A stretch of 64,000 nt of DNA from Acholeplasmataceae bacterium (GTDB taxonomy: Bacteria; Bacillota_I; Bacilli_A; Acholeplasmatales; Acholeplasmataceae): positions 1,056,001 to 1,120,000 of the forward strand of contig OY775910.1 of assembly GCA_963675245.1 (NCBI GenBank), read 5' to 3'. Below the pieces are notes generated by a model. It saw only the letters and a program-made list of their open reading frames with translations. It made no database searches and was not told the DNA's origin. This document shows, piece after piece, positions 2,221 through 43,654 of the stretch. Numbering within the stretch: the stretch's first letter is position 1; every line of letters starts with the position of its first letter. The position numbers and the translations under genes were made by a program.

Positions 2221-3507
2221 ATGACGAAAATTATTGGTGCGGGATTAGCTGGTGTGGAAGCTGCATATTATCTTGCAAATCACGGCATAGATGTCACACT
2301 CTATGAAATGCGTCCACACAAAATGACACCCGCCCATCAAACAGGCAACTTTGCAGAATTAGTATGTTCAAACTCACTTAGATCTGATGACATTAAAAAT
2401 GCCGTCGGTCTTTTAAAGAAAGAAATGGAAACCATTGGATCTTTGGTCATGCAAGCTGCACGACATGCGAGTGTCCCTGCAGGATCTAGTTTAGCCGTTG
2501 ATCGTAAACTATTCTCAAGTTTTATTATGGACAAATTAGAGCATCATCCCCGTATTACAATCGTTAGAGAAGAAGTTAAAGACATAGATTTAAATACACC
2601 TACTATCGTGTGTGCAGGACCACTTGTAAGTGATGACTTATCATCATATTTACAAAAACTATTACATCAAAGTTATCTTCATTTCTATGATGCTATCGCT
2701 CCAATCATTGATGCTGATTCTATTAACTTAGATATTGCTTATTTAAAGAGTAGATATGATAAGGGTGAAGCTGCTTATATTAATTGTCCAATGACAAAAG
2801 CGGAATATGAAGCATTTTATGATGCGTTAATACACGCTGAAACAGTCAGTGTTAAAGGTTTTGAAAACAATGTTTTTGAAGGGTGTATGCCATTTGAAAC
2901 GATGGCTTCACGTGGCCATGATACACTATTATATGGCCCAATGAAACCAGTCGGATTAGAAGTTGAAGGAAGAGAAAAACCCTATGCAGTTGTGCAATTA
3001 AGACAAGATGATGCAGCTAAACAAATGTATAACATTGTTGGTTTTCAAACACATCTTACGTGGCCAGAACAAAAACGCATTATCCAAATGATCCCTGGTT
3101 TAGAGAATGCTAAGATTCTGCGTTATGGTGTGATGCATAGAAATACATATATTGAAAGTCCTAAAGTATTAAATAACGGTTATCAAGTTAAAGATCATTC
3201 TAACCTTTTTATTGCTGGACAAATCAGTGGTGTTGAAGGTTATGTAGAGAGTGCTGCATCTGGATTGAATGCAGCAATACAATTAGTTAGAGTCATTCAA
3301 GGAAAAGAAATTAATCCATTGCCAAGAGAAACGATGATGGGGGCAATGGCTCATTATATTTCCACATCCAATCAATCGTTCGTTCCTATGAATGCGAATT
3401 TAGGGTTATTTCCTGAGTTAGGATTTAAACATTATAAAAAAGAACGGAAAGAACTATATGCTGGACGTTCATTGGTGGCGTTAGATCAGTACTTGGAGGA
3501 ATTATGA
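2221..3507 (+). CDS. trmFO: FAD/folate-dependent tRNA m5U54 methyltransferase
   Basis: IIGAGLAGVEAA, ELVCSNS, YGVMHRNTY, GVEGYVESAASG. Confidence 0.96.
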   Translation: MTKIIGAGLAGVEAAYYLANHGIDVTLYEMRPHKMTPAHQTGNFAELVCSNSLRSDDIKNAVGLLKKEMETIGSLVMQAARHASVPAGSSLAVDRKLFSSFIMDKLEHHPRITIVREEVKDIDLNTPTIVCAGPLVSDDLSSYLQKLLHQSYLHFYDAIAPIIDADSINLDIAYLKSRYDKGEAAYINCPMTKAEYEAFYDALIHAETVSVKGFENNVFEGCMPFETMASRGHDTLLYGPMKPVGLEVEGREKPYAVVQLRQDDAAKQMYNIVGFQTHLTWPEQKRIIQMIPGLENAKILRYGVMHRNTYIESPKVLNNGYQVKDHSNLFIAGQISGVEGYVESAASGLNAAIQLVRVIQGKEINPLPRETMMGAMAHYISTSNQSFVPMNANLGLFPELGFKHYKKERKELYAGRSLVALDQYLEEL

Positions 3508-4418
3508 ATCCAGTTAAAGCTTTTATAGATTATTTAACAAATGAAAAGAATTACTCTGAACACACATTAATTAGCTATGAACGTGACATTCTAGATTTTG
3601 AAGCGTTTATTGAACATGAAGAATTAGCGCCAGATTTGCTAGGTGTGAAAAGAGAAAGATTGGGCAGACATTTCTTATCGCATTTAGATGAATTGGGATT
3701 AAGTAAAAAAACAATTGCTAGAAAAATATCAGCTCTCCGTACGTTTTATGGGTATTTACAAAAACAAGAGATGATTGATATCAATATTTTTAAAGATTTG
3801 GAAATTCCTAAAATTCCTAAAAAATTACCGAGTATGATTGATGATGATGAAATTGAAATGATATTTAAATCTATCGACCAGTCAACACCATTAGGTTATC
3901 GTAATTACGTCATTTTTGATTTATTATATAGCTGCGGTTTACGTGCGAGTGAACTAATTGGTATGACAACTAAAGATATTCAATTAAATGCCGAACAAAT
4001 TTTAATTCATGGGAAAGGTTCAAAAGATCGTTACGTACCTCTTCATGCTCATTTAATTGATGAACTTAAACATTATTTAACATACACGAGACCTGTTTTA
4101 TTATCTAAAGGTCATGACATAACAGTTCGTGAAGTTCTTCTGAACTATAGAGGTGGTCCATTGACCGTTAGAGGACTGCAATTGATCTTAAAAAAGATTA
4201 TTAAAGATTCTGGTGAAACATTTAAAATTCACCCACATATGTTAAGACATGCATTCGCAACCACACTTCTAAATCATGGTGCTGATTTACGTGTTGTTCA
4301 AGAATTATTAGGACATGCTCATTTAAAATCCACACAGATTTATACGCATGTTTCATCTGAAAAAATACGTGAATCATATCGTGATAAACATCCTAGGATG
4401 GTAAAAAAAAATGATTAG
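3504..4418 (+). CDS. xerC: XerC/CodV-like tyrosine recombinase
   Basis: GLRASEL, GKGSKDR, HPHMLRHAFAT, LLGH, TQIY catalytic residues; trmFO-xerC synteny as in Firmicutes. Confidence 0.85.
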   Translation: MNPVKAFIDYLTNEKNYSEHTLISYERDILDFEAFIEHEELAPDLLGVKRERLGRHFLSHLDELGLSKKTIARKISALRTFYGYLQKQEMIDINIFKDLEIPKIPKKLPSMIDDDEIEMIFKSIDQSTPLGYRNYVIFDLLYSCGLRASELIGMTTKDIQLNAEQILIHGKGSKDRYVPLHAHLIDELKHYLTYTRPVLLSKGHDITVREVLLNYRGGPLTVRGLQLILKKIIKDSGETFKIHPHMLRHAFATTLLNHGADLRVVQELLGHAHLKSTQIYTHVSSEKIRESYRDKHPRMVKKND

Positions 4419-32486: not shown

Positions 32487-33053
32487 TTAGCTTGCTAGAG
32501 ATGCTAAAGCAATAACAAAGCTAATAATCGTAATAATCACTAAAAATATAACAAAACCATAGATGAAATTAACTTGTGAGGACATCTTATCAATCGCGAG
32601 CGTATTTTTGATTGTAATCTGTTCAATGATCTCATTATCACTTAATGGCGTTATTATTGTAAAAGTAAATGTATCTTTATAATAACCAAATTGATTATCA
32701 TAATAATACGAACTCACCCAAACACCATCAACACCATTCCTTTTTTCATAAACATGATCTGGTAGATTAGCGTAATTAGCTTTATAATAGGCTTCGATGT
32801 CATCAATGATAAGTGGATCTGTGATTTGTAAAGGTTCCTTTTTAACAAAAGGTGGTAATGTTTCTAGATGAGCATATTGCTCCTGATTATCTTCAAGAAT
32901 GTGTCCTTTTATTTGGAAATGAATATCACTAGGTAAATCTAATCCCTGGTAAAGCATCTCAGCATATGATGATATAAGTTTTTCATCAACAATGTCGCTC
33001 TTATGCTCAGTTAAAATACCTAATTCATTTAACGCTTTAGATTGATACATCAT
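32487..33053 (-). CDS. Hypothetical protein with C-terminal TM helix
   Basis: 188-aa ORF with GGGGAGGA RBS and hydrophobic C-terminus. Confidence 0.7.
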   Translation of the reverse strand: MMYQSKALNELGILTEHKSDIVDEKLISSYAEMLYQGLDLPSDIHFQIKGHILEDNQEQYAHLETLPPFVKKEPLQITDPLIIDDIEAYYKANYANLPDHVYEKRNGVDGVWVSSYYYDNQFGYYKDTFTFTIITPLSDNEIIEQITIKNTLAIDKMSSQVNFIYGFVIFLVIITIISFVIALASLAS

Positions 33054-33198
33054 AATTCCTCCCCGTTGTATACATTCATTTCATTCTATCATGAATGAAA
33101 AAAAGGGTCAATAAGCAGTAAAAAACAAGGATTTGACGATATCAAATACATTGATAAAACGTATTCATTATCTATTGATAAAATATTAATTGATTGTC

Positions 33199-33226
33199 TT
33201 GACATTTTATAATTTGTTGGTATAAT
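33199..33226 (+). promoter_or_regulatory. Promoter of the tRNA cluster
   Basis: TTGACA-16 bp-TATAAT with TG extension. Confidence 0.7.
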
Positions 33227-33247
33227 TATATGTGCTGCTAGTTTGTT

Positions 33248-33323
33248 GGCCCGTTGGAGAAACGGTTAACTCACATGCCTTTCACGCATGCATTCACGGG
33301 TTCGAATCCCGTACGGGTCACCA
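33248..33323 (+). tRNA. tRNA-Glu(TTC)
   Basis: Anticodon arm CATGC-CTTTCAC-GCATG; CCA end. Confidence 0.96.
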
Positions 33324-33377
33324 TCTTACCAACAACGCAGTAAGCGTTATACATATGAGTTATTTAACTCAGTTTAA

Positions 33378-33454
33378 GTACCCATAGCTCAATTGGATAG
33401 AGCGCTTGACTACGGATCAAGAGGTTGGGGGTTCAAGTCCTCTTGGGTACGCCA
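33378..33454 (+). tRNA. tRNA-Arg(ACG)
   Basis: Anticodon loop CTACGGA; CCA end. Confidence 0.96.
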
Positions 33455-33459
33455 TTTAT

Positions 33460-33536
33460 CGGGAAGTAGCTTAGCTTGGTAGAGCGCCTGGTTTGGGACC
33501 AGGAGGTCGCAGGTTCAAATCCTGTCTTCCCGACCA
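33460..33536 (+). tRNA. tRNA-Pro(TGG)
   Basis: Anticodon arm CCTGG-TTTGGGA-CCAGG; CCA end. Confidence 0.96.
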
Positions 33537-33543
33537 TTCAATT

Positions 33544-33617
33544 GCGGGCGTAGTTCATCGGTAGAACCTCAGCCTTCCAAGCTGATGAGGTGGGTTCGAT
33601 TCCCATCGCCCGCTCCA
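33544..33617 (+). tRNA. tRNA-Gly(TCC)
   Basis: Anticodon arm TCAGC-CTTCCAA-GCTGA; CCA end; anchors the downstream cassette array. Confidence 0.96.
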
Positions 33618-33662
33618 TAAGAGTAGAATAGGTCTGATACATTCGGTATCATACCTTTTTTT
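33615..33662 (+). repeat. Junction J1: CCA + TAAGAGTAGAATAGG + terminator hairpin
   Basis: CCATAAGAGTAGAATAGGT identical to 35371-35389; GGTCTGATAC/GTATCATACC stem + T run. Confidence 0.85.
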
Positions 33663-33695
33663 ATGCCTTTATTTAGCCGTTTCTATATTTTGACA

Positions 33696-33747
33696 TTGTA
33701 CTAAAATAGATAATTCCATAGATGTGAAATACCCTGTTTTGATACAA
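33696..33747. repeat. 52-bp imperfect palindrome (att-like), copy 1
   Basis: TTGTACTAAAATAGATAATTC...GAAATACCCTGTTTTGATACAA; same-length homologue at 37509-37560. Confidence 0.75.
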
Positions 33748-33770
33748 TTTTAGTAGAAATTAAGAATCCT

Positions 33771-33820
33771 TTACACGATTATATTTCAAAATACACGATT
33801 TAAATTGGATTTACACGATT
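33771..33820 (+). repeat. 3 x TACACGATT at exact 20-bp period
   Basis: Units start at 33771, 33791 and 33811; homologous triplets at 35511 and 37584. Confidence 0.85.
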
Positions 33821-33978
33821 TCAAAATTTTTAGGTTATAAGAGTTCTTTTAGTGTATAATATAACGTAGTATTTGGCCGTATTCGGCATATGCAACTTTC
33901 CGTTGCTAATATGTAAGTACATCTATTCTTGAGTAGGAATGTTCTTTTATGTAGTATTGAATCAAAGGAGGAATCAAC

Positions 33979-34308
33979 ATGGAATATTTTGGATTAAAAT
34001 TACAAACTTTAAGAAAAAAAGCATCTATGTCACAAGACGATTTAGCTTCATTAATAGGTGTTAGTAGACAAGCTATTAGTAAATGGGAAAGATCAGATGG
34101 ACTACCAGATTTATACAATGTCAAAAAAATTGCAGAGGTCTTCAATATCACTATTGATGAATTAATGGATATTGAGATAAAACCAATTGATATGGACAAA
34201 GTTAAAACAAATAAATTAGCACTTGCATTTTTAACTGTACCAGGAGCAATTTTAGCGTTTTTATCAATTATTGCTTTAATCGAATTTTTAGGAGGTATAG
34301 TGTTATGA
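33979..34308 (+). CDS. XRE-family HTH protein with TM helix
   Basis: LRKKASMSQDDLASLIGVSRQAISKWE. Confidence 0.88.
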   Translation: MEYFGLKLQTLRKKASMSQDDLASLIGVSRQAISKWERSDGLPDLYNVKKIAEVFNITIDELMDIEIKPIDMDKVKTNKLALAFLTVPGAILAFLSIIALIEFLGGIVL

Positions 34309-35171
34309 TTTTTCAAGGCGGATTTACAATCTCAACATTGTTTGCTTTAGTAGTACCAGTTATAGGTGTAACATATTTATTCTCGCTATATAATCTTTAC
34401 ATAGGTAGAAATGTTTTAAAACATAAGTACATTATTCTAGGAATGAACTTTACATTCTTGTTTGGGTATATTATTATTTTGTTCAATATACCTGAATACA
34501 ATCACATTCCACTTATAGTATTATTGATTTTGATTTTAGCTATAATAGTTTTAGGTATTATTGGTGGGTTTTTGTATGAACAAGAACGAAGTCGTAATTA
34601 TATTGATAAGTATGCTCATTTAACAAAAAGATTACTTTTTGCTGTAAAATCGACATATGGATTTGTTGGTCTAGTTTTTATTGCATTCTTTTCTTATACT
34701 TTGTTGACACATGAAATTGAAGTCGTAAACAGAATTTCATATTATTTTGAACAGCCAGATAATGTTGATACTCCATTGTATGGTTATGTCGAGGTGTCTA
34801 CTGATGATGAAGTTACTATTGTTGTTGAAGGTATACATTTGGATTACTCTATTGAGGAGATTAAACAAGTTGAAGTTTACATAAACGATACCTTAGTCCA
34901 CACAAGTGTTAATATTGAAGGGTTCTTGACTAATGAAAATTACAATAGTGAGTATATCGTAATAATTGAAGAACAACCTTCTCAAGGATTTATGTTGAAT
35001 TATGTTTTCGATTATGACTTTGATTCTATGGAAGATTTTGGATCAACTGTTAATGTTAGTATAGTGCTAAGTACTCAGGATAATGTATTCACTTATGATT
35101 ATTCTAGTGTGGATTATAGTTGTGGTTATCAAAACAAGATAGTACCAATTTGGATAAAAGAAGAAAATTAG
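34305..35171 (+). CDS. Membrane protein (about 4 TM + acidic extracellular domain)
   Basis: Hydrophobic N-terminal half; ATGA overlap with the HTH gene. Confidence 0.7.
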   Translation: MIFQGGFTISTLFALVVPVIGVTYLFSLYNLYIGRNVLKHKYIILGMNFTFLFGYIIILFNIPEYNHIPLIVLLILILAIIVLGIIGGFLYEQERSRNYIDKYAHLTKRLLFAVKSTYGFVGLVFIAFFSYTLLTHEIEVVNRISYYFEQPDNVDTPLYGYVEVSTDDEVTIVVEGIHLDYSIEEIKQVEVYINDTLVHTSVNIEGFLTNENYNSEYIVIIEEQPSQGFMLNYVFDYDFDSMEDFGSTVNVSIVLSTQDNVFTYDYSSVDYSCGYQNKIVPIWIKEEN

Positions 35172-35183
35172 ATGTTAGATTTA

Positions 35184-35418
35184 GGGTTTGATGCCCAGTA
35201 TTTAATAGATAGTTGAATAACCTATTTTGATACAAAGAAATTACTACCTGAAAAATATCCGAAAATAAAAAGCCTAAACTAAGCCATAATTTAGGGGTGT
35301 AATTTTTTCGGGTGGGGGTGTAAAAATTTTGGCTAGGGGTGTAAAATTGTAGCAAAATAGGTCATACAACCCATAAGAGTAGAATAGGTTTGATACAATT
35401 GTATCAGGCTTTTTTTTA
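35184..35418. repeat. Right-end module 1 + junction J2 (T-arm mimic, inverted 24-mers enclosing 3 x GGGGTGTAA, CCA, terminator)
   Basis: Near-identical to 37265-37432; GTTGAATAACCTATTTTGATACAA (35212-35235) / TTGTAGCAAAATAGGTCATACAAC (35347-35370). Confidence 0.9.
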
Positions 35419-35510
35419 CGCTATATAGCGCCGTTTCTCCATTCGCCAATATTTTTCGAAACTAAAAAACATACTAGTTTTAAGGGGTTTTTGACATTTC
35501 GATAGAATTT

Positions 35511-35560
35511 CTACACGAGTACATTTTAAAAAATACGATTTAAAATGGTTTTACACGATT
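35511..35560 (+). repeat. 3 x TACACGATT-like at 20-bp period, copy 2
   Basis: CTACACGAGT, AAATACGATT, TTACACGATT at 35511, 35531 and 35551. Confidence 0.8.
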
Positions 35561-35649
35561 TATTATACAAAGATATCATTGCACTTATTTTAATTCTATT
35601 GTATAATTATATTAGTAAGAAAGTAGGAAAGTGAGAAAAAGGTGATATT

Positions 35650-35949
35650 ATGATTATAGAATTAAGAAAGAAATCGCAGATTACGATACCTAAAGAAATT
35701 GTTGATCAATTACATCTCCAAGAAGGAGATCATCTTGAGATATCAGTTAAGGATGGTGCAGTCCTACTAGAACCGGTGGCAATATATTCTAAATCGTATA
35801 TTCAAAAATTAGAAGATACTGTTATGAGAATCAGTGAAGAACCAACCAAGTATAATGTTGGTCCTTTTAAATCTGTGGAAGATGCTATTAAATATTTAGA
35901 AGAATCTGATGAAGAAACTGAAGCTGCAGATAAAGTTAATAAACAATGA
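35650..35949 (+). CDS. AbrB/MazE/SpoVT-family antitoxin
   Basis: KSQITIPKEIVDQLHLQEGDHLEI; acidic tail; ATGA overlap with the toxin gene. Confidence 0.85.
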   Translation: MIIELRKKSQITIPKEIVDQLHLQEGDHLEISVKDGAVLLEPVAIYSKSYIQKLEDTVMRISEEPTKYNVGPFKSVEDAIKYLEESDEETEAADKVNKQ

Positions 35950-36212
35950 GATACGAAATACTGTTTTCAAATAAATTTAAGAAATCTTTTTCTAAACTTG
36001 AACTTTATGAAAAGAAATTATTCTATAAAAAGCTATCTTTATTTGTTGAAAATCATCAGCATCCCAGCTTGAGAACAAAAAAGATTCAAGGTAGCGAGAT
36101 ATTGTTTGAATCTAGCATAAATATGTCAATTAGAGTTATTTGGACATTTAAGGATGAATCCCTAATATTGATGTTAGATATTGGTCACCATGATATATTG
36201 AAAAGATTATAA
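35946..36212 (+). CDS. RelE/ParE-superfamily toxin
   Basis: FSNKFKKSFSKL, HPSLRTKKIQG, IRVIW, DIGHHDIL. Confidence 0.82.
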   Translation: MRYEILFSNKFKKSFSKLELYEKKLFYKKLSLFVENHQHPSLRTKKIQGSEILFESSINMSIRVIWTFKDESLILMLDIGHHDILKRL

Positions 36213-36368
36213 TGTTAAACTTTGGTTTTTTGAAAAAACCAGAGTTTTTTTGTAGTGAATTATTTTTTGTAAAATGTTATAATGTAAGAAAAATCTTACA
36301 AAAATTGTTGTATGTACTTGGTGGATGGATTATAAGATATATAATAAAATGGAAGCATCAGAGGAGGA

Positions 36369-37247
36369 ATGAAAATGAAATTCGAAAAAAATCTAGAGTT
36401 ATTAAGAAAAAGAAAAGGATTATCTCAAGAAGATCTAGCTTTAACTATTGGTGTTTCTAGGCAAACTATTTATACATGGGAAGGCGGATTAAACTATCCC
36501 AATATTCTTATGTTAAAAAAAATTGCGAATGTACTAGATGTATCAACAGATGACTTGCTTAATGGGTATGATGTTAGTAAACTACCAAAAAGATTTAAAT
36601 CTGTTGAGCTAAACTACATATCGAAACGACAAGGTGCGATTAAGTATAAAGAAGTTCCAAATTGGTTTATACCATTAAAAGAGGAAGAAGAAGTATGTAC
36701 TGCGTTATACGATGATGGTATAAAAAGTTATTCATATCACTTAACCGTTTTGAATAAGATTCTTTTACATGATAATGAGGGATATGAAGTAATGGTAGAA
36801 GAATATGACCCCCAGTTAAACAAGACAAAAACCTATTCATTAATTATTAATGAAGTTAATGATGAACTATTCTTTTTGGGGAGAATTCACTTCGAAGATG
36901 GTATTAAATGCATTGAAACATTTAAAGATAAAAAGTTTTTGAATCACTGGGGAATTGGGAAACAGTTTTTAGGACAATCAATGATTTATGATAATGCAGA
37001 AAACTATGAACTAACCATTGATGGTAAAAAGCAAAAAGCTATTAAAATTAGCTATTTCGATCCGGATGGTACAGATGATCCAAAAAATTCATATTTTGAA
37101 GTATTTTTAAATCAAGAACTACAGTCTATATTCTGGCAAAGATATACCACAGGGGTGAAATCGAAGATTCAAATCAATATTGATGGAAAGCAATATGGTT
37201 TAGGTTACCAATCATTAACAGATAGAATAAATTTGCATGAGAATTGA
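36369..37247 (+). CDS. XRE-family HTH protein with large C-terminal domain
   Basis: LRKRKGLSQEDLALTIGVSRQTIYTWEGG; RBS GAGGAGG. Confidence 0.85.
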   Translation: MKMKFEKNLELLRKRKGLSQEDLALTIGVSRQTIYTWEGGLNYPNILMLKKIANVLDVSTDDLLNGYDVSKLPKRFKSVELNYISKRQGAIKYKEVPNWFIPLKEEEEVCTALYDDGIKSYSYHLTVLNKILLHDNEGYEVMVEEYDPQLNKTKTYSLIINEVNDELFFLGRIHFEDGIKCIETFKDKKFLNHWGIGKQFLGQSMIYDNAENYELTIDGKKQKAIKISYFDPDGTDDPKNSYFEVFLNQELQSIFWQRYTTGVKSKIQINIDGKQYGLGYQSLTDRINLHEN

Positions 37248-37264
37248 TTTCTGGATAAATAGAA

Positions 37265-37476
37265 GGGTTGGATACCCTACAATAAGTTGATTAGTTGAAT
37301 AACCTATTTTGACACAAGAGAATGACTACTAAAAAAATTGAAAAACAAAACCTCTAAACTAAGCCATAATTTAGGGGTGTAATTTTTTAGGATGGGGGTG
37401 TAAAATTGTAGCAAAATAGGTCACACAACCCATATTGAAAGCATTAGTCAGATACGATTAAGTATCAGACCTTTTT
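37265..37476. repeat. Right-end module 2 + junction J3
   Basis: GGGTTGGATACCC; inverted 24-mers at 37294-37317 and 37406-37429; 2 x GGGGTGTAA; CCA at 37430; GTCAGATAC/GTATCAGAC hairpin. Confidence 0.9.
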
Positions 37477-37508
37477 GGTCTTAATTAAACTATTTCTTGT
37501 TTATAGTG

Positions 37509-37633
37509 TTGTGTTAAAATAGGTAGTTTTACAGGTAGAGAATAATCTATTTTAATACATTCTTAGTAGAAAATTTGAATCTTCAACACGATTACATTTT
37601 AAAATTCATGTTTGAAATCGATTTTACTCGATT
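37509..37633. repeat. 52-bp palindrome copy 2 + degenerate 20-bp-period triplet
   Basis: TTGTGTTAAAATAGGTAG...GAATAATCTATTTTAATACAT; units at 37584, 37604 and 37624; same offset (24 nt from palindrome end to first unit) as copy 1. Confidence 0.75.
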
Positions 37634-37757
37634 AAAGTAAAATAACTCTTTGACTAGTATGACTTGACAAAATAACCTTTAAATCCAACAAAGAAAAAGC
37701 TATAATAGAAATAGTAATAATAAATTTTTAACATAGTATTTATAGGAGGTATTTGTA

Positions 37758-38231
37758 GTGAAATATGTATTTAAAGATTATGATATAAGATATTTTGCAG
37801 GAATTAAATTGCCAAATGGAATTGCAGTTGAAGATACCGATAATGAAGCAGTCCCCACATTATGGAATAGATTAGTTAGTGAAGTTTTACATCATATTCC
37901 GAACATGATCCATCCTAATAAATTCATAGGCTTAGAATGTTTTAGCCCTGACTTTAAGGAGACTAGAAGATTTGATTATTATGCTTTAGTTCAAACGGAA
38001 TCATTTGTAGATAATGAAGAACATTTTGTTGCAAAGAAACTACCAAAAGGGAAATATATTTGTTTCGAAATACTGTTTAATAATTTAGATGAAGAAATAA
38101 GGAAGTGTCATAATTATATACAATCTAATAACATTAAAGTTAATACTGAATTTGACTATACCGAGTATTTAGATGGAGAAGACTATAGTAATGAAAAAGC
38201 TAAAGTACATTTTAGTTTTTTATTGATTTAG
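37758..38231 (+). CDS. GyrI-like/effector-binding domain protein
   Basis: VPTLWNRL, FDYYA, KLPKGKY; GTG start after AGGAGG. Confidence 0.8.
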   Translation: MKYVFKDYDIRYFAGIKLPNGIAVEDTDNEAVPTLWNRLVSEVLHHIPNMIHPNKFIGLECFSPDFKETRRFDYYALVQTESFVDNEEHFVAKKLPKGKYICFEILFNNLDEEIRKCHNYIQSNNIKVNTEFDYTEYLDGEDYSNEKAKVHFSFLLI

Positions 38232-38244
38232 AAGTATATGATTC

Positions 38245-38303
38245 AAACAAGTCATACAACGCATAAGGAAATCATATGACCGATACATTATATCGGTCTT
38301 TTT
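38245..38303 (+). repeat. Degenerate junction J4
   Basis: AAACAAGTCATACAAC-GCATA then GACCGATA/TATCGGTC hairpin + T run. Confidence 0.7.
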
Positions 38304-38750
38304 GATATATTTATAAAGCATGACTTTTTTTATGAAGATTGAAGTAATAAAGTTGTTATTACTAGAGGGTTTATAAAGTTTCTTGATAAATTACGTTATC
38401 TTATACTTTTCTAAAATGAGATTAGATGATAGAATGATTCAAAAGGAAATAGTAATTTTTAAGATAATTAATACAAAAACAAGTGTTACTTATCGGCTAG
38501 AAGAGGTCATGACATAATAAAATACTGAACCTTGGACAAGTGTTGGCTTTTTATTTCACATATAAGATTACTTTTTAGATGTCAATAGATAGAATTTTCA
38601 TATATGTAGGTATGTCATTTGAACATATCATATCTAATCTAAAGAAAATAGAATATCAAGTATTAATGATAATTGAAATAACAAAATGTTATAGAATGGA
38701 TACTAAATTAATTAAAATACAATCAACTATTAAATAGGAGAAAGAAGTTA

Positions 38751-39398
38751 ATGAAAATAGAATGGAGAAAACAGTATAAGAATCTTTATTTACCAAAAAC
38801 GAAACCGGAAATTATTGAAACAGATGAAATGGCTTACATTGTTATTGAAGGTGAAGGTAGTCCAGATAGCTTACAATTTTCACAAGCAGTTGAAGCGTTA
38901 TATGCATTATCATATAGTCTTAAAATGGCTCCAAAAAAAGGGTATAACATCGATGGGTATCAAGCATATACTGTATTCCCTTTAGAAGGTGTCTGGTGTC
39001 TGAATAAAGAAGGGATAAAGATGAATGCTAAAGGTATTTCAGCAAATGATTTAAGAGACTATTATATGTTCAAAATGATGATTAGACAACCAGAATTTAC
39101 GACTAAATCACTATTTGAAGATATCAAAAAAAATGCGTATAAAAAGAAAAAGAATGAAAGCATTCTTAAAGCTGAATATAAACGTATTAAAGAACCCATG
39201 AGTTGTCAAATGATGCATATTGGTCCATATAAGACAGAGCCCAAAACATTTAAAATAATGGAAGATTTTGTCATCAAAGAAGGATATTCTAGAAAAGAGA
39301 AATATCATAAAGAAATCTATATTTCAGATCCTAGAAAAGTTGCTCCTGATAAAATGAAAACAGTACTTAGATTTGAACTTAAAAAAGAGGTTTTATAG
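38751..39398 (+). CDS. GyrI-like small-molecule-binding protein
   Basis: LYLPKTKPEII, VFPLEGVW, QMMHIGPY, HKEIYISDPRK. Confidence 0.85.
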   Translation: MKIEWRKQYKNLYLPKTKPEIIETDEMAYIVIEGEGSPDSLQFSQAVEALYALSYSLKMAPKKGYNIDGYQAYTVFPLEGVWCLNKEGIKMNAKGISANDLRDYYMFKMMIRQPEFTTKSLFEDIKKNAYKKKKNESILKAEYKRIKEPMSCQMMHIGPYKTEPKTFKIMEDFVIKEGYSRKEKYHKEIYISDPRKVAPDKMKTVLRFELKKEVL

Positions 39399-39455
39399 TA
39401 GGGTATTCAACCCTTAATAAAGGCTTTTCTGATGAGGTTTTATCAGACTTCTTTG
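39395..39455 (+). repeat. Degenerate junction J5 (probable distal end of the array)
   Basis: ATAGTAGGGTATTCAAC-CCT-TAA then TCTGAT/ATCAGA hairpin + T-rich tract. Confidence 0.5.
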
Positions 39456-39621
39456 TCACTTTTTTAATCCTTATCTTTTGTGAATAAAACACTTGATTTC
39501 TACGCTAATGAAATGATTAAAATCGACAAATTATTGTTGTAACAATGCATATTTGATAGAGGATGACCGTAGACTGGATTAATTATTGACTTTTTATACA
39601 ATTTATGATAAACTTTTTTAA

Positions 39622-39714
39622 AGATAAAGGCAAAACTAGAGAAATCTAGTGACGCAAAGCTAAAGGGTCTTGAATAAAGATAGCCAGTTACCAACATTTT
39701 TTTGTTGGTTTTTT
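39622..39714 (+). promoter_or_regulatory. c-di-GMP-I (GEMM) riboswitch with overlapping terminator
   Basis: GGCAAAACTAGA-GAAA-TCTAGTGACGCAAAGCTAAAGGGTCT...AGATAGCCAGTTACC; ACCAACA/TGTTGGT + T run. Confidence 0.9.
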
Positions 39715-39727
39715 GTTTGGTGCAGAA

Positions 39728-42700
39728 ATGAAAAGAAAATTGGTTAGTAAAAAATTAATCATAATTACATTATTACTCATCCTAGTGATTAGTAATTTTG
39801 GTCTTTCATTCGCATACTGGTCAGGACATATTGAAAGTAGTGAAGTCAATGCAAACCCTTCAATTCCAATTGGTTCTTGGAATTATGAAGATGTTGCATT
39901 AACTGTCGCAACCTTCCTCAGTGATCATTCAGACGTTTTAGCACTGACAACAGAGACAGTAACCGTGAATGATAAAGCAGCGGTTGAAGCAGCACTTGGC
40001 GCATATGGTTTATTAAGTGAAGAAGCGAAAGCAGCATTAACCAGTGAAGAAGCGTTACTGATTGAGTTATTCAATGAAATCACAGCGTATGAGCATAGTG
40101 TGTTCCTAGACTTTGAAGGATATGCCTATGATTCAGGGCTGACAGGCACCGTCGAAATTGATGGTAGAACATGGTATGGAAATGGTGTCTACATATCTAA
40201 TGATCCAAGTTATGATGTATGGATGGATACGCGTTCCTTAGCATTAAAAACAGGAGCTTATTTCCAATCACAAGACTACTTCATAAATGGTATTGAAAAG
40301 ATTAGCATATACAGTGGCGCATTACACTTTGATAATGGCACAAGTTTCGCCTATAAGATAGAATATGAACTACAGTCAAATCCAGGGGTTTGGCTAACGG
40401 TACAAGAAGGTGGTTCTGATAAGATTATCAGCGTTATTTCAGGCACCCCATTAGCACATGCAGAAGTAAACGTGAATATTACTGAGGCAGTAAATATTAG
40501 ATTCACACCAGTAATTGGAAATACATCTGATTATATTAACTTAGACAATATTCGTATTTATGAACACGTGGTGACAAGCGCACTGGAAGCAGCGACTTTC
40601 AGAACAGTTTATGCAGGACCACTAGCATTGACAACAAGCACCGTACAAATCAGTGATAAAGCAGCAATTGAAGCAGCATTATCAGCCTATGATTTATTGA
40701 GTATCGATGCTCAAACAGCGTTAATAGCTGAAAAAGCATTACTTGATAGTATCATGGCAGCAATTGAAACACAAGAAGCATATGAAAGTGCAACAGAAGC
40801 AGTCGTAATCGCAGAAGGAAGTCTCTTACAAACAGATGTTGATAGCGCACAAACATTAGTTACTAGCTTACCAAATGGTACAGCGAAGACAGCGCTTCAA
40901 GACCGCTTAAATGACGTGCAAGATATCATAAACGACATAGCAACCTTCATCGGTGATCACACCAGTGTATTATCGTTAAGTGTAGGAACTGTCACAACAG
41001 GTGATAAAGCAGCGGTTGAAGCAGCTTTAGCAGACTATGCATTACTGAGTGAAAGTGTAAAGGCAGAACTCACAAATGAGAAAGCCTTACTTGATAGTTT
41101 ATTAGCAGAAATTAATAATCAAATACCGACGGCGACGTTGGTCCAAGCATTCAGAACGACTTACGCAGATACTTTAGCCTTAACCATAGGTACGGTACAA
41201 ATGAGTGATCAAGCAGCGATTGAATTAGCGTTAGAGGCATATGACGTATTAACTGCTGAAGCGAAAGCTGAACTCACAGCTGAAAAAGCATTATTGGATA
41301 GTTTAATCGTAGAAGTGATGATACTCAAAGCAACAGAAGCAGTCGTGATCGCAGAAGGAAGTCTTTTACAAGCAGATGTTGATAGCGCACAAACATTAGT
41401 TATTAGCTTACCAAATGGTACAGCGAAGATAGCGCTTCAAGATCGACTTGATGATGTCCAAAATATGATTGATCATTTAATAACAATTGCTGAAGAGGTC
41501 GCAACCTTCCTCAGTGATCATTCAGACGTTTTAGCACTGACAACAGAGACAGTAACCGTGAATGATAAAGCAGCGGTTGAAGCAGCACTTGGCGCATATG
41601 GTTTATTAAGTGAAGAAGCGAAAGCAGCATTAACCAGTGAAGAAGCGTTACTGATTGAGTTATTCAATGAAATCACAGCGTATGAGCATAGTGTGTTCCT
41701 AGACTTTGAAGGATATGCCTATGATTCAGGGCTGACAGGCACCGTCGAAATTGATGGTAGAACATGGTATGGAAATGGTGTCTACATATCTAATGATCCA
41801 AGTTATGATGTATGGATGGATACGCGTTCCTTAGCATTAAAAACAGGAGCTTATTTCCAATCACAAGACTACTTCATAAATGGTATTGAAAAGATTAGCA
41901 TATACAGTGGCGCATTACACTTTGATAATGGCACAAGTTTCGCCTATAAGATAGAATATGAACTACAGTCAAATCCAGGGGTTTGGCTAACGGTACAAGA
42001 AGGTGGTTCTGATAAGATTATCAGCGTTATTTCAGGCACCCCATTAGCACATGCAGAAGTAAACGTGAATATTACTGAGGCAGTAAATATTAGATTCACA
42101 CCAGTAATTGGAAATACATCTGATTATATTAACTTAGACAATATTCGTATTTATGAACACGTGGTGACAAGCGCACTGGAAGCAGCGACTTTCAGAACAG
42201 TTTATGCAGGACCACTAGCATTGACAACAAGCACCGTACAAATCAGTGATAAAGCAGCAATTGAAGCAGCATTATCAGCCTATGATTTATTGAGTATCGA
42301 TGCTCAAACAGCGTTAATAGCTGAAAAAGCATTACTTGATAGTATCATGGCAGCAATTGAAACACAAGAAGCATATGAAAGTGCAACAGAAGCAGTCGTA
42401 ATCGCAGAAGGAAGTCTCTTACAAACAGATGTTGATAGCGCACAAACATTAGTTACTAGCTTACCAAATGGTACAGCGAAGACAGCGCTTCAAGACCGCT
42501 TAAATGACGTGCAAGATATCATAAACGACATAGCAACCTTCATCGGTGATCACACCAGTGTATTATCGTTAAGTGTAGGAACTGTCACAACAGGTGATAA
42601 AGCAGCGGTTGAAGCAGCTTTAGCAGACTATGCATTACTGAGTGAAAGTGTAAAGGCAGAACTCACAAATGAGAAAGCCTTACTTGATAGTTTATTAGCA

Positions 42701-43654
42701 GAAATTAATAATCAAATACCGACGGCGACGTTGGTCCAAGCATTCAGAACGACTTACGCAGATACTTTAGCCTTAACCATAGGTACGGTACAAATGAGTG
42801 ATCAAGCAGCGATTGAATTAGCGTTAGAGGCATATGACGTATTAACTGCTGAAGCGAAAGCTGAACTCACAGCTGAAAAAGCATTATTGGATAGTTTAAT
42901 CGTAGAAGTGATGATACTCAAAGCAACAGAAGCAGTCGTGATCGCAGAAGGAAGTCTTTTACAAGCAGATGTTGATAGCGCACAAACATTAGTTATTAGC
43001 TTACCAAATGGTACAGCGAAGATAGCGCTTCAAGATCGACTTGATGATGTCCAAAATATGATTAACGTGCTAGCTGCTGCTAATGTTGATGATTTGATCA
43101 CGGCTATACCTAGTGTGGGAGAAATCTCACTTAGCGATGAATCGCAAATTGTCGCAGCAAGAGTTGCATATGATATTTTAACGATAGCACAACAATCATT
43201 AGTCACAAATGAAGCAATATTATCATCAGCAGAAACGCAACTGACCTCATTACAAACTGCTACTGCTGCAGTTGTGAAAGCAGAAGAAAGTCTCTTACAA
43301 GTAGATGTCAATAGCGCACAAACATTAGTTACTAACCTACCAAATGGCACATCAAGAATAGCACTTCAAAATAGGTTAAATGCTGTTCAAGATGTGATTG
43401 ATGTTGAATCGGCAAGAACAATCATCATTAATTATTTTGCTGCAAACTCAGTTGTAGTATCAAGACTCAATAGCAATGCTATAAAAGAAAATGCAGTCTT
43501 GACAAAATCAAATGAAATCGTCAATGGGCTTGGTGTTAACATTACGATCACAAATTCTGTTTATAACAGTCGAACTAGTTCAACTTACACCATACAAGTT
43601 GTGAAGAATGGTGCAAACACATCGTTTGTTGTAGTTGTTACATTTACAAGATAA
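39728..43654 (+). CDS. Large repetitive surface protein with SipW-type signal peptide
   Basis: KRK + hydrophobic + SFAYW...IPIGSW; Ala-rich helical repeats and beta-rich domains; 531-aa-period duplication. Confidence 0.8.
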   Translation: MKRKLVSKKLIIITLLLILVISNFGLSFAYWSGHIESSEVNANPSIPIGSWNYEDVALTVATFLSDHSDVLALTTETVTVNDKAAVEAALGAYGLLSEEAKAALTSEEALLIELFNEITAYEHSVFLDFEGYAYDSGLTGTVEIDGRTWYGNGVYISNDPSYDVWMDTRSLALKTGAYFQSQDYFINGIEKISIYSGALHFDNGTSFAYKIEYELQSNPGVWLTVQEGGSDKIISVISGTPLAHAEVNVNITEAVNIRFTPVIGNTSDYINLDNIRIYEHVVTSALEAATFRTVYAGPLALTTSTVQISDKAAIEAALSAYDLLSIDAQTALIAEKALLDSIMAAIETQEAYESATEAVVIAEGSLLQTDVDSAQTLVTSLPNGTAKTALQDRLNDVQDIINDIATFIGDHTSVLSLSVGTVTTGDKAAVEAALADYALLSESVKAELTNEKALLDSLLAEINNQIPTATLVQAFRTTYADTLALTIGTVQMSDQAAIELALEAYDVLTAEAKAELTAEKALLDSLIVEVMILKATEAVVIAEGSLLQADVDSAQTLVISLPNGTAKIALQDRLDDVQNMIDHLITIAEEVATFLSDHSDVLALTTETVTVNDKAAVEAALGAYGLLSEEAKAALTSEEALLIELFNEITAYEHSVFLDFEGYAYDSGLTGTVEIDGRTWYGNGVYISNDPSYDVWMDTRSLALKTGAYFQSQDYFINGIEKISIYSGALHFDNGTSFAYKIEYELQSNPGVWLTVQEGGSDKIISVISGTPLAHAEVNVNITEAVNIRFTPVIGNTSDYINLDNIRIYEHVVTSALEAATFRTVYAGPLALTTSTVQISDKAAIEAALSAYDLLSIDAQTALIAEKALLDSIMAAIETQEAYESATEAVVIAEGSLLQTDVDSAQTLVTSLPNGTAKTALQDRLNDVQDIINDIATFIGDHTSVLSLSVGTVTTGDKAAVEAALADYALLSESVKAELTNEKALLDSLLAEINNQIPTATLVQAFRTTYADTLALTIGTVQMSDQAAIELALEAYDVLTAEAKAELTAEKALLDSLIVEVMILKATEAVVIAEGSLLQADVDSAQTLVISLPNGTAKIALQDRLDDVQNMINVLAAANVDDLITAIPSVGEISLSDESQIVAARVAYDILTIAQQSLVTNEAILSSAETQLTSLQTATAAVVKAEESLLQVDVNSAQTLVTNLPNGTSRIALQNRLNAVQDVIDVESARTIIINYFAANSVVVSRLNSNAIKENAVLTKSNEIVNGLGVNITITNSVYNSRTSSTYTIQVVKNGANTSFVVVVTFTR
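39905..43063 (+). repeat. Intragenic direct repeat, 2 x 1566 bp (39905-41470 and 41498-43063)
   Basis: Identical translated segments; nucleotide identity at all spots checked; 27-bp unique linker. Confidence 0.92.

Follow-up and report, generated by a model that had tools for sequence, protein, structure and literature searches.

What lies behind the 3' end of tRNA-Gly(TCC) in this genome, and how could it have come to be there? The window, as we call the whole 64,000-nucleotide stretch of contig OY775910.1 that was analysed, belongs to an Acholeplasmataceae genome that consists of a single contig of 1.63 Mb with 34% G+C and a completeness of 99.96%. It contains a cluster of tRNA genes (Glu-Arg-Pro-Gly) of which tRNA-Gly(TCC) is the final gene according to ARAGORN and Rfam, and immediately after the CCA of that gene, from 33618 to about 38263, at least three small modules follow one another in tandem. 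Their joints are marked by a 24-bp half-site, M, that is followed by CCA. Judged from its sequence, this is probably a row of small integrative cassettes that carry no recombinase of their own. An initial annotation of the same DNA had read the arrangements of M as P-P', P-B' and B-P' products of one large serine recombinase (LSR) crossing over at or near the CCA. The evidence below suggests that the cassettes probably share their ends with a family of elements placed by LSRs at the CCA of tRNA genes, and that they are orphaned here.

M is exact at 35347-35370 and has one mismatch at 37406-37429, and CCA follows both copies. Inverted copies, M', lie at 35212-35235 (three mismatches) and 37294-37317 (four mismatches). 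Allowing three mismatches, there are three occurrences of M in the window, compared to none in 100 shuffles. Two palindromes of 52 bp each, at 33696-33747 and 37509-37560, start 79 and 77 bp past a CCA; their self-complementarity of 34/52 is among the seven best of the approximately 64,000 52-mers in the window, and their arms match M at just 15-17 of 24 positions. The sequence past M+CCA at 35371 repeats the sequence found past the tRNA-Gly CCA (repeat family D6). The half-sites, their inverted copies and the palindromes are therefore where the initial annotation had placed them and are far from chance by shuffles and ranks, and we likewise confirm that the palindromes are identical in length and evenly placed, and that M is joined to CCA and tRNA-downstream-type sequence at 35347 and 37406. 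A scatter of M matches through AT-rich DNA, which had been named as an objection, is not what a scan of the entire genome revealed: the degenerate 14-base core of M, TTGTRNNAAAATAG, has 11 matches, and nine of these fall within three arrays. Six are in the window and the rest are at genome positions 1256726, 1352226 and 1352317. The second array begins directly after tRNA-Leu(GAG) (genome 1254612-1254700), and the third has its M+CCA at 1352317, 8 kb past tRNA-Ser(GGA).

The inverted copies call for more caution. The stretch in front of them had been described as resembling a tRNA T arm, but it matches the 3' end of tRNA-Gly at only 14 of 27 positions, in a single register (the others give at most 8), so that the location of these copies stands and the T-arm likeness is weak. 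The interpretation of the inverted copies as B-P' products depends on this weak pseudo-tRNA likeness and is doubtful. The T-arm-like stretch reads GGGTTCGATACCC in many other genomes and may be derived from a terminator half-stem; M' resembles the terminator arm.

Comparisons among relatives place the limits of the inserts at tRNA 3' ends. In five genomes of the same genus, the sequence past the tRNA-Gly CCA is unrelated from the first base in three and is of the terminator/box type in two, and divergence among strains likewise begins past the CCA of tRNA-Leu(GAG). One relative has an unoccupied tRNA-Leu site with a plain hairpin downstream. The same hairpin (36 identical bases) is found past M+CCA in another genome, where it has the appearance of an attR with its native flank, as expected for the far joint of an occupied site. 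Taken together, divergence past the tRNA CCA and an M+CCA that is followed by the native hairpin indicate that the insert would run from the start of the terminator arm to the end of M+CCA. CCA is the only sequence common to both ends. The tRNA genes that have such inserts are Gly-TCC (7), Leu-CAG (2), Leu-GAG (1), Pro-CGG (1) and Ser-GGA (1). The proposal that the tRNA CCA is the boundary, and the place of crossover, agrees with divergence that starts right past it and with the M+CCA at the far end of each insert.

The geometry of the joints suggests which unit could serve as the site of recombination. The consensus of M, CCA and the next 25 bp is an imperfect 52-bp palindrome, symmetric at 13 of 26 positions overall and at 9 of the outer 10. 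The second C and the A of CCA lie on either side of its midpoint. The window joints at 35347-35398 and 37406-37457 agree with it at 45 and 43 of 52 positions, respectively. Identity between tRNA ends and M ends is confined to CCA. Among 15 M copies that are preceded by G-boxes, and that were not chosen by their CCA, the CA is kept in 14 (8 ACA, 5 CCA and 1 GCA, with 1 CTA as the exception), a constancy that a 2-bp crossover at CA would predict. The best attP-like unit is likely to be M-CCA-terminator, centred on CA, and not the stand-alone palindromes, which have GA (33696-33747) and GG (37509-37560) at their centres and by the usual LSR rule would not cross with a CA site. The half-site behaviour at CCA described in the initial annotation is thus supported, while the role of attP that it assigned to the palindromes is not.

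The same joint is widespread in related bacteria. In a species-level genome collection, M+CCA was found in 108 stretches from Acholeplasmataceae, Izemoplasmatales and other Mycoplasmatota (this count is by pattern; alignments and consensus comprise 106-119 distinct copies), and one 93-kb plasmid carries at least four copies. In lineage samples, 24 of the 121 genomes from the window's family and 19 of the 301 from its class contain M+CCA, and a reversed-pattern control gave no match in them; it is concentrated in two families and is patchy inside genera. Across the copies the 27 bases of M+CCA are near-invariant and the flanks drift. Boxes are located 5' of M at -9, -30, -51 and -71 in several subtypes (the M/G-box subtypes are GCGTAA, GTAAAA, GCTAAA and GCCAAA), 50 of 119 copies share the terminator arm behind their CCA, and TACACGATT is found at +138, +158 and +178 in about 20. 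M' is restricted to one subtype, and palindromes occur in about six other loci at a matching position, +67 to +128 past the CCA. For annotation, the 27 bp of M+CCA are a sharp marker of islands of accessory genes in these lineages. A search of the INPHARED phage collection with the joint gave no match, and in the plasmid collection CP017949 was the only match, without annotation at the sites. The open-access literature yielded no description of an M+CCA system. An Rfam scan of 33000-39800 returned only four tRNAs and a cyclic di-GMP (c-di-GMP) riboswitch, and the idea that M+CCA is part of a known RNA was rejected for that reason.

Two variants of the surroundings of M were observed. At six loci (L006, L018, L022, L028, L040 and L065) G-boxes are absent and a gene abuts M: a protein of ~155 amino acids, with a SWIM-like Cys/His motif recognised by eye and no Pfam match, ends inside M, the first nine bases of which supply its final codons and stop. 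At another locus (L005; M at 3001-3027, minus strand) tRNA-Glu comes directly past M+CCA, and the insert lies between two genes of a tRNA cluster.

The family of the enzyme is suggested by larger elements with the same ends. Two complete relatives, G302 and G352, have prophage-like elements of 30 and 44 kb at tRNA-Leu(GAG). From the tRNA-Leu outward these contain a terminator arm, four copies of TACACGATT, portal, protease, capsid and tail genes, a tandem pair of LSR genes (436-437 and 529 amino acids), cargo, G-boxes and M, ending in M+CCA in G302 and in an M variant plus ACA in G352. The LSR pair comprises their only site-specific recombinases, with no tyrosine recombinase match inside either element. 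The tRNA-Leu(GAG) of the window's own genome is followed by a 2-kb, two-gene cassette (XRE-Fic and GNAT) with the same ends. Because the tRNA-Leu and the ends are the same, the most fitting view of the cassettes is that they are miniature relatives of these elements without a recombinase. In G302 the prophage is followed by four to five cassettes, and tandem arrays are also present in G002 and G004. LSR genes were found beside M in three of the eight viral (IMG/VR) contigs that hold M: in one a 449-amino-acid LSR ends about 85 bp before M (L139), in another a 544-amino-acid LSR ends about 100 bp past the CCA (L141), and in the third a tandem LSR pair lies 3.7 kb upstream of M (L133). The assignment to the LSR family made in the initial annotation is supported by these pairs and by the LSRs that abut M in viral contigs; the accompanying expectation that serine recombinase genes would be found near M holds for the prophage-like elements of two relatives and for three of the eight viral contigs, but fails for the window's genome.

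At the right end of the 44-kb element of G352 (L158, ~3400-3720), eight G-boxes and three tandem M variants are found, as if the end module had been duplicated.

What lies between the joints varies. When the window was set against arrays from two further genomes, one belonging to another genus and likewise at tRNA-Gly(TCC), only the joints of ~390 bp aligned (72-88% identity) and the intervening genes were unrelated. M+CCA is always at the distal end of the variable cargo, and metagenome contigs from public runs carry the same joints with other cargo. Cassette 1 has an 80% identical copy on the plasmid of a relative, and the toxin-antitoxin pair of cassette 2 recurs with 76-77% identity in four other loci, with different neighbours each time. 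One toxin-antitoxin locus has its own decayed M and terminator just behind the pair; cassette 2 is probably two fused cassettes. The open reading frames (ORFs) within 3 kb of M make up a typical accessory pool, in which the largest cluster encodes XRE regulators (17 loci); the rest includes genes for toxin-antitoxin systems and abortive infection, a SIR2-STALD protein, GNATs, DUF4143 ATPases and transporters. The plasmid copy of cassette 1 lacks the M'...M module and continues straight into the terminator, which may reflect excision or a deletion between short repeats, each of which would fit. An interpretation of the M'...M module as a 159-bp miniature element in a pseudo-tRNA end was considered and left unadopted.

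The layout of the array, its limits, the recurrence of the joints in other genomes and the LSRs in elements with the same ends are seen directly. From them we infer that LSRs act on the sites, with crossover at CA, and mobilise the cassettes in trans. In the mechanism we propose, a circular element would carry a ~52-bp imperfect palindrome composed of M (24 bp), a C, the central CA and a 25-bp arm doubling as the 5' half of a terminator. The recombinase would pair this site with a tRNA 3' end and exchange strands at the CA of the encoded CCA. One side would then read tRNA-CCA-terminator arm, leaving the tRNA whole and with a new terminator, and the other would read M-CCA-downstream DNA. Further insertions on the tRNA side would stack cassettes with M-CCA-terminator joints between them, and cassettes without a recombinase would move only while the cell also contains a relative that has an LSR, for instance a prophage. 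A broader form of this idea is gene capture in Acholeplasmataceae and Izemoplasmatales of the kind seen in the staphylococcal cassette chromosome (SCC) or in integrons, in which the LSR pairs of prophages would cut at the CA of the universal tRNA CCA and mobilise in trans a large stock of cassettes of one to three genes, each having a promoter, a terminator and a 52-bp site of its own, and a generic T-arm/acceptor end would be recognised, making landing sites of several tRNAs. We put this broader form forward tentatively, as a possibility that falls somewhat short of being probable.

Several observations count against insertion by LSRs. The window's genome, 99.96% complete, has no match to either PF00239 (Resolvase) or PF07508 (Recombinase); lacking a serine recombinase, it would hold nothing able to act on the sites, and its three arrays would at present be stranded. 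Within 3 kb of the 108 genome M sites, LSR fragments were found at three loci and full LSR genes at none. An LSR match is present in 15 of 24 genomes with M (9 are without) and in 33 of 97 without M, a weak co-occurrence among genomes that are related and not independent. The LSRs found beside M belong to at least three lineages that are about 25% identical, none of them tied to the site, and the "one recombinase" of the initial annotation is not borne out. The usual LSR rule would keep a new attP from joining an attL or attR, and growth of the array would therefore need an extra assumption. LSR attP sites are not known to need flanking repeats, and the joints have boxes in 21-bp phase on both sides, more like tyrosine arm-type sites or iterons. 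Finally, no recombination event was seen: assembled contigs from public runs, which for the source organism break at the repeated joints, gave no excision signal, and a second sample of the same organism had thin coverage of the stretch, so that these data speak neither for nor against excision.

Could a tyrosine recombinase be responsible instead, whether integron-like, lambda-like in trans or Xer, with the GGGGTG../TACACGATT boxes as arm sites and M as the core? We consider this quite unlikely, although tRNA 3' ends are classic targets of tyrosine integrases, joints of ~300-390 bp with boxes at 20-21-bp phase on both sides of a core would suit such an enzyme, and the window's genome has six Xer-like tyrosine recombinases, none near an array. 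Two of the six form a tandem pair (genome 1131554-1133439; L117 5555-7446), 50% identical to each other, with close homologues in 10 of 24 genomes with M compared to 3 of 97 without. The pair was nevertheless rejected as the M enzyme, being absent from G302, G246 and G087, which have three to six sites each; G302, with six M sites, holds just XerC, XerD and a 220-amino-acid fragment. No tyrosine recombinase was found within 3 kb of M by tblastn of the genome's six enzymes against 106 M loci, in a Pfam scan of 150 of the 222 ORF-cluster representatives near M, or among 61 viral-contig ORFs, and the 30- and 44-kb elements have none, as noted above. The candidates are Xer-like proteins of ~290-325 amino acids, too short for an arm-binding domain, and the identity of 3 bp between tRNA and element is below the usual overlap of 6-8 bp. 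A 290-amino-acid recombinase at genome position 993355 was set aside because its homologues, present in 83 of 121 genomes, are unrelated to the presence of M, and a Xer/dif-like reading of the box-plus-M sequence was considered and dropped.

Two further explanations dispense with a site-specific recombinase. Unlikely, in our judgement, is the view that the joints are transcription punctuation and that the cassettes are swapped by homologous recombination after DNA uptake. It would explain the terminator-like hairpin at each joint (6 found, 1.9 expected) and the position of TACACGATT just 5' of cassette promoters, often ahead of XRE-type regulators (the 17-locus cluster), and ~390 bp at 72-88% identity is homology enough; many hosts without an LSR, and the metagenome contigs in which the joints accompany other cargo, are also in keeping with it. 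It leaves unexplained why the boundary lies exactly at the CCA of several different tRNAs, why the 27-bp M+CCA hardly varies across two families when its surroundings do, why there is a 52-bp dyad geometry, and why prophage-like elements that carry LSRs have the same ends. The other view, in which a DDE transposase moves non-autonomous transposons that have the terminator arm and M as imperfect terminal inverted repeats and CCA as a 3-bp target duplication, is very improbable. The ends are indeed inverted repeats (13/26 overall, outer 9/10) with CCA at both, and the sub-terminal boxes recall Tn7-like ends, which have multiple transposase-binding sites. However, the only transposases seen are those of unrelated rve-type insertion sequence copies, with none associated with the cassettes, and the "duplication" never departs from CCA, ACA or GCA, as expected of a fixed crossover and not of a copied target.

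Two observations concern tyrosine recombinases of the window's genome. In many relatives, homologues of the tandem Xer-like pair are within ~3 kb of two LSRs of ~545-580 amino acids that are distinct from the M-linked pair; this recurring arrangement looks like a three-recombinase module in its own right, and in the window's genome its LSR genes are missing. A XerC-like protein encoded at 3501-4415 in the window, the tyrosine recombinase nearest to the array at about 30 kb, scores 309.5 bits (the XerC cut-off is 335) and is probably the chromosome dimer resolvase, with no relation to the array.

Returning to insertion by LSRs at the tRNA CCA, the closest analogue would be the SCC/Ccr composite islands, as a likeness of mechanism and not of membership. 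The SCC/SCCmec account on which this comparison draws describes att sites as degenerate inverted half-sites around a central dinucleotide, three of them element-like and one in the target gene, and also reports composite islands built in tandem and elements that have an att pair but no recombinase (PMC13739063). Here, too, the att architecture appears to consist of half-sites, three element-like and one from the target gene, and tandem composites include recombinase-less, att-bounded units (the window array, G302, G002 and G004). The LSRs again form a tandem of a short and a long protein (437 and 529 amino acids, compared to 442 and 542 for the CcrA and CcrB profiles), and insertion is at the extreme 3' end of a conserved housekeeping gene that is kept intact. 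The differences are substantial. The target is the CCA end of several tRNA genes and not rlmH, and the centre is CA and not GA; the LSRs, whose best NCBIfam matches are Ccr models, are not Ccr equivalogs (75-272 bits against cut-offs of 700-900); and the units, in Mycoplasmatota hosts, mostly have one to three genes, their own promoter and terminator, and phased boxes.

Phage LSR integrases of the phiC31, Bxb1 and A118 type have an attP of ~50 bp, an imperfect dyad that is strongest in the outer arms, with almost no identity to attB beyond the central dinucleotide, and the integrase gene adjoins attP. The sites here resemble them in length, outer-arm dyad, slight identity to the putative attB and, in some viral contigs, an adjacent LSR gene. 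Phage LSRs are described as targeting open reading frames and not tRNA genes, with minimal sites that lack flanking repeats, and are not known to build cassette arrays, and the tRNA targets, flanking repeats and cassette arrays set the present system apart. Integrons share with it the one-directional row of small cassettes split by conserved recombination sites, and the style of cargo (toxin-antitoxin systems, GNATs, a Cass2 protein and many unknowns), but here no IntI is adjacent, there is no attC-type folded site, the cassettes have their own promoters and the enzyme proposed is of the serine family. The CIMEs (cis-mobilizable elements) of Streptococcus thermophilus are att-bounded, recombinase-less units that stand in tandem, whether an autonomous element shares their site or not, and presumably rely on mobilisation in trans; they depend on a tyrosine integrase and duplicate a stretch of the target 3' end. 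The window's cassettes are likewise recombinase-less, att-bounded tandem units, but they have only CCA in common with the target and no long target repeat. They differ also from the islands that tyrosine integrases place at tRNA genes, in having no integrase and just the CCA of the tRNA at the far end.

If the proposal is true, it would have several consequences. LSRs are usually described at protein-coding genes, and tRNA genes are regarded as the preserve of tyrosine integrases; a serine system with its crossover within the CCA of several tRNAs would do away with this division of targets. It would imply that arrays of the SCC/integron type arose in wall-less bacteria and their relatives, would amount to a serine-recombinase counterpart of the integron, and would offer a way to study how genes for defence, toxin-antitoxin systems and transport enter such small genomes. 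A multi-site landing system based on an LSR for generic tRNA ends could also interest genome engineers.

The modules of the array are built to a common order on the + strand, to which all of the features below belong except the two palindromes, which have no strand: a terminator-like hairpin, three copies of TACACGATT at 20-bp spacing, a promoter-like stretch, a cargo of one to three genes, a T-arm-like hairpin, M', two to three GGGGTGTAA boxes at 21-bp spacing, and M+CCA. A 52-bp palindrome is present in two of the three modules, 77-79 bp on. The tRNA-Gly(TCC) gene is at 33544-33617, and its CCA (33615-33617), a putative attB-type half-site, bounds the array on the proximal side. The left end of cassette 1, a P'-type arm with a terminator hairpin (33618-33665, a D6 repeat homologous to the joints of other genomes), together with the tRNA-Gly end, is a predicted attL-like joint. 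Next are palindrome 1 (33696-33747; repeat I1, with M-like outer arms) and, 5' of the cassette promoter, three copies of TACACGATT (33772-33820, 20-bp spacing, a D7 repeat). The cargo of cassette 1 (33979-35171) encodes an XRE-type helix-turn-helix protein (33979-34308) and a 288-amino-acid membrane protein. It is followed by the T-arm-like stretch (35183-35209) and M' (35212-35235), which together occupy 35183-35235, by three GGGGTGTAA boxes spaced 21 bp apart, of which the third abuts M (35293-35346), and by the exact M with CCA that makes the right end (35347-35373).

Cassette 2 begins with a P' arm and terminator (35374-35420, the terminator at 35386-35411); M and the P' arm form the 52-bp joint at 35347-35398, which is predicted to be attP-like. 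Three boxes of the TACACGATT type, two of them with mismatches, are at 35512-35560 (D7 repeat). The cargo (35650-37247) starts with a MazE/AbrB-type antitoxin (35650-35949) and its 88-amino-acid partner (35946-36212) and ends with an XRE-domain protein of 292 amino acids (36369-37247). The T-arm-like stretch and M' (37264-37317, M' at 37294-37317), two GGGGTGTAA boxes (37373-37405) and M with one mismatch plus CCA (37406-37432) complete the right end. Cassette 3 opens with a P' arm and terminator-like hairpin (37433-37480; D6 and D8 repeats), palindrome 2 (37509-37560) and decayed boxes of the TACACGATT type (37585-37634, D7 repeat), and its cargo (37758-38231) is a GyrI-like protein that matches Pfam Cass2, "integron-associated effector binding protein". 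The last recognisable joint, at 38251-38305, is a decayed M remnant (GTCATACAAC) with GCA and a terminator (38278-38298), and is a D6 repeat.

Beyond the array, a second GyrI-like gene is found at 38751-39398, after the Cass2-matching gene. A c-di-GMP-I riboswitch (67.8 bits) occupies 39619-39695, just 5' of a gene (39713-43654) for a repeat-rich and probably surface-located protein of 1313 amino acids, which contains an exact 1593-bp internal duplication (39905-40204 = 41498-41797).

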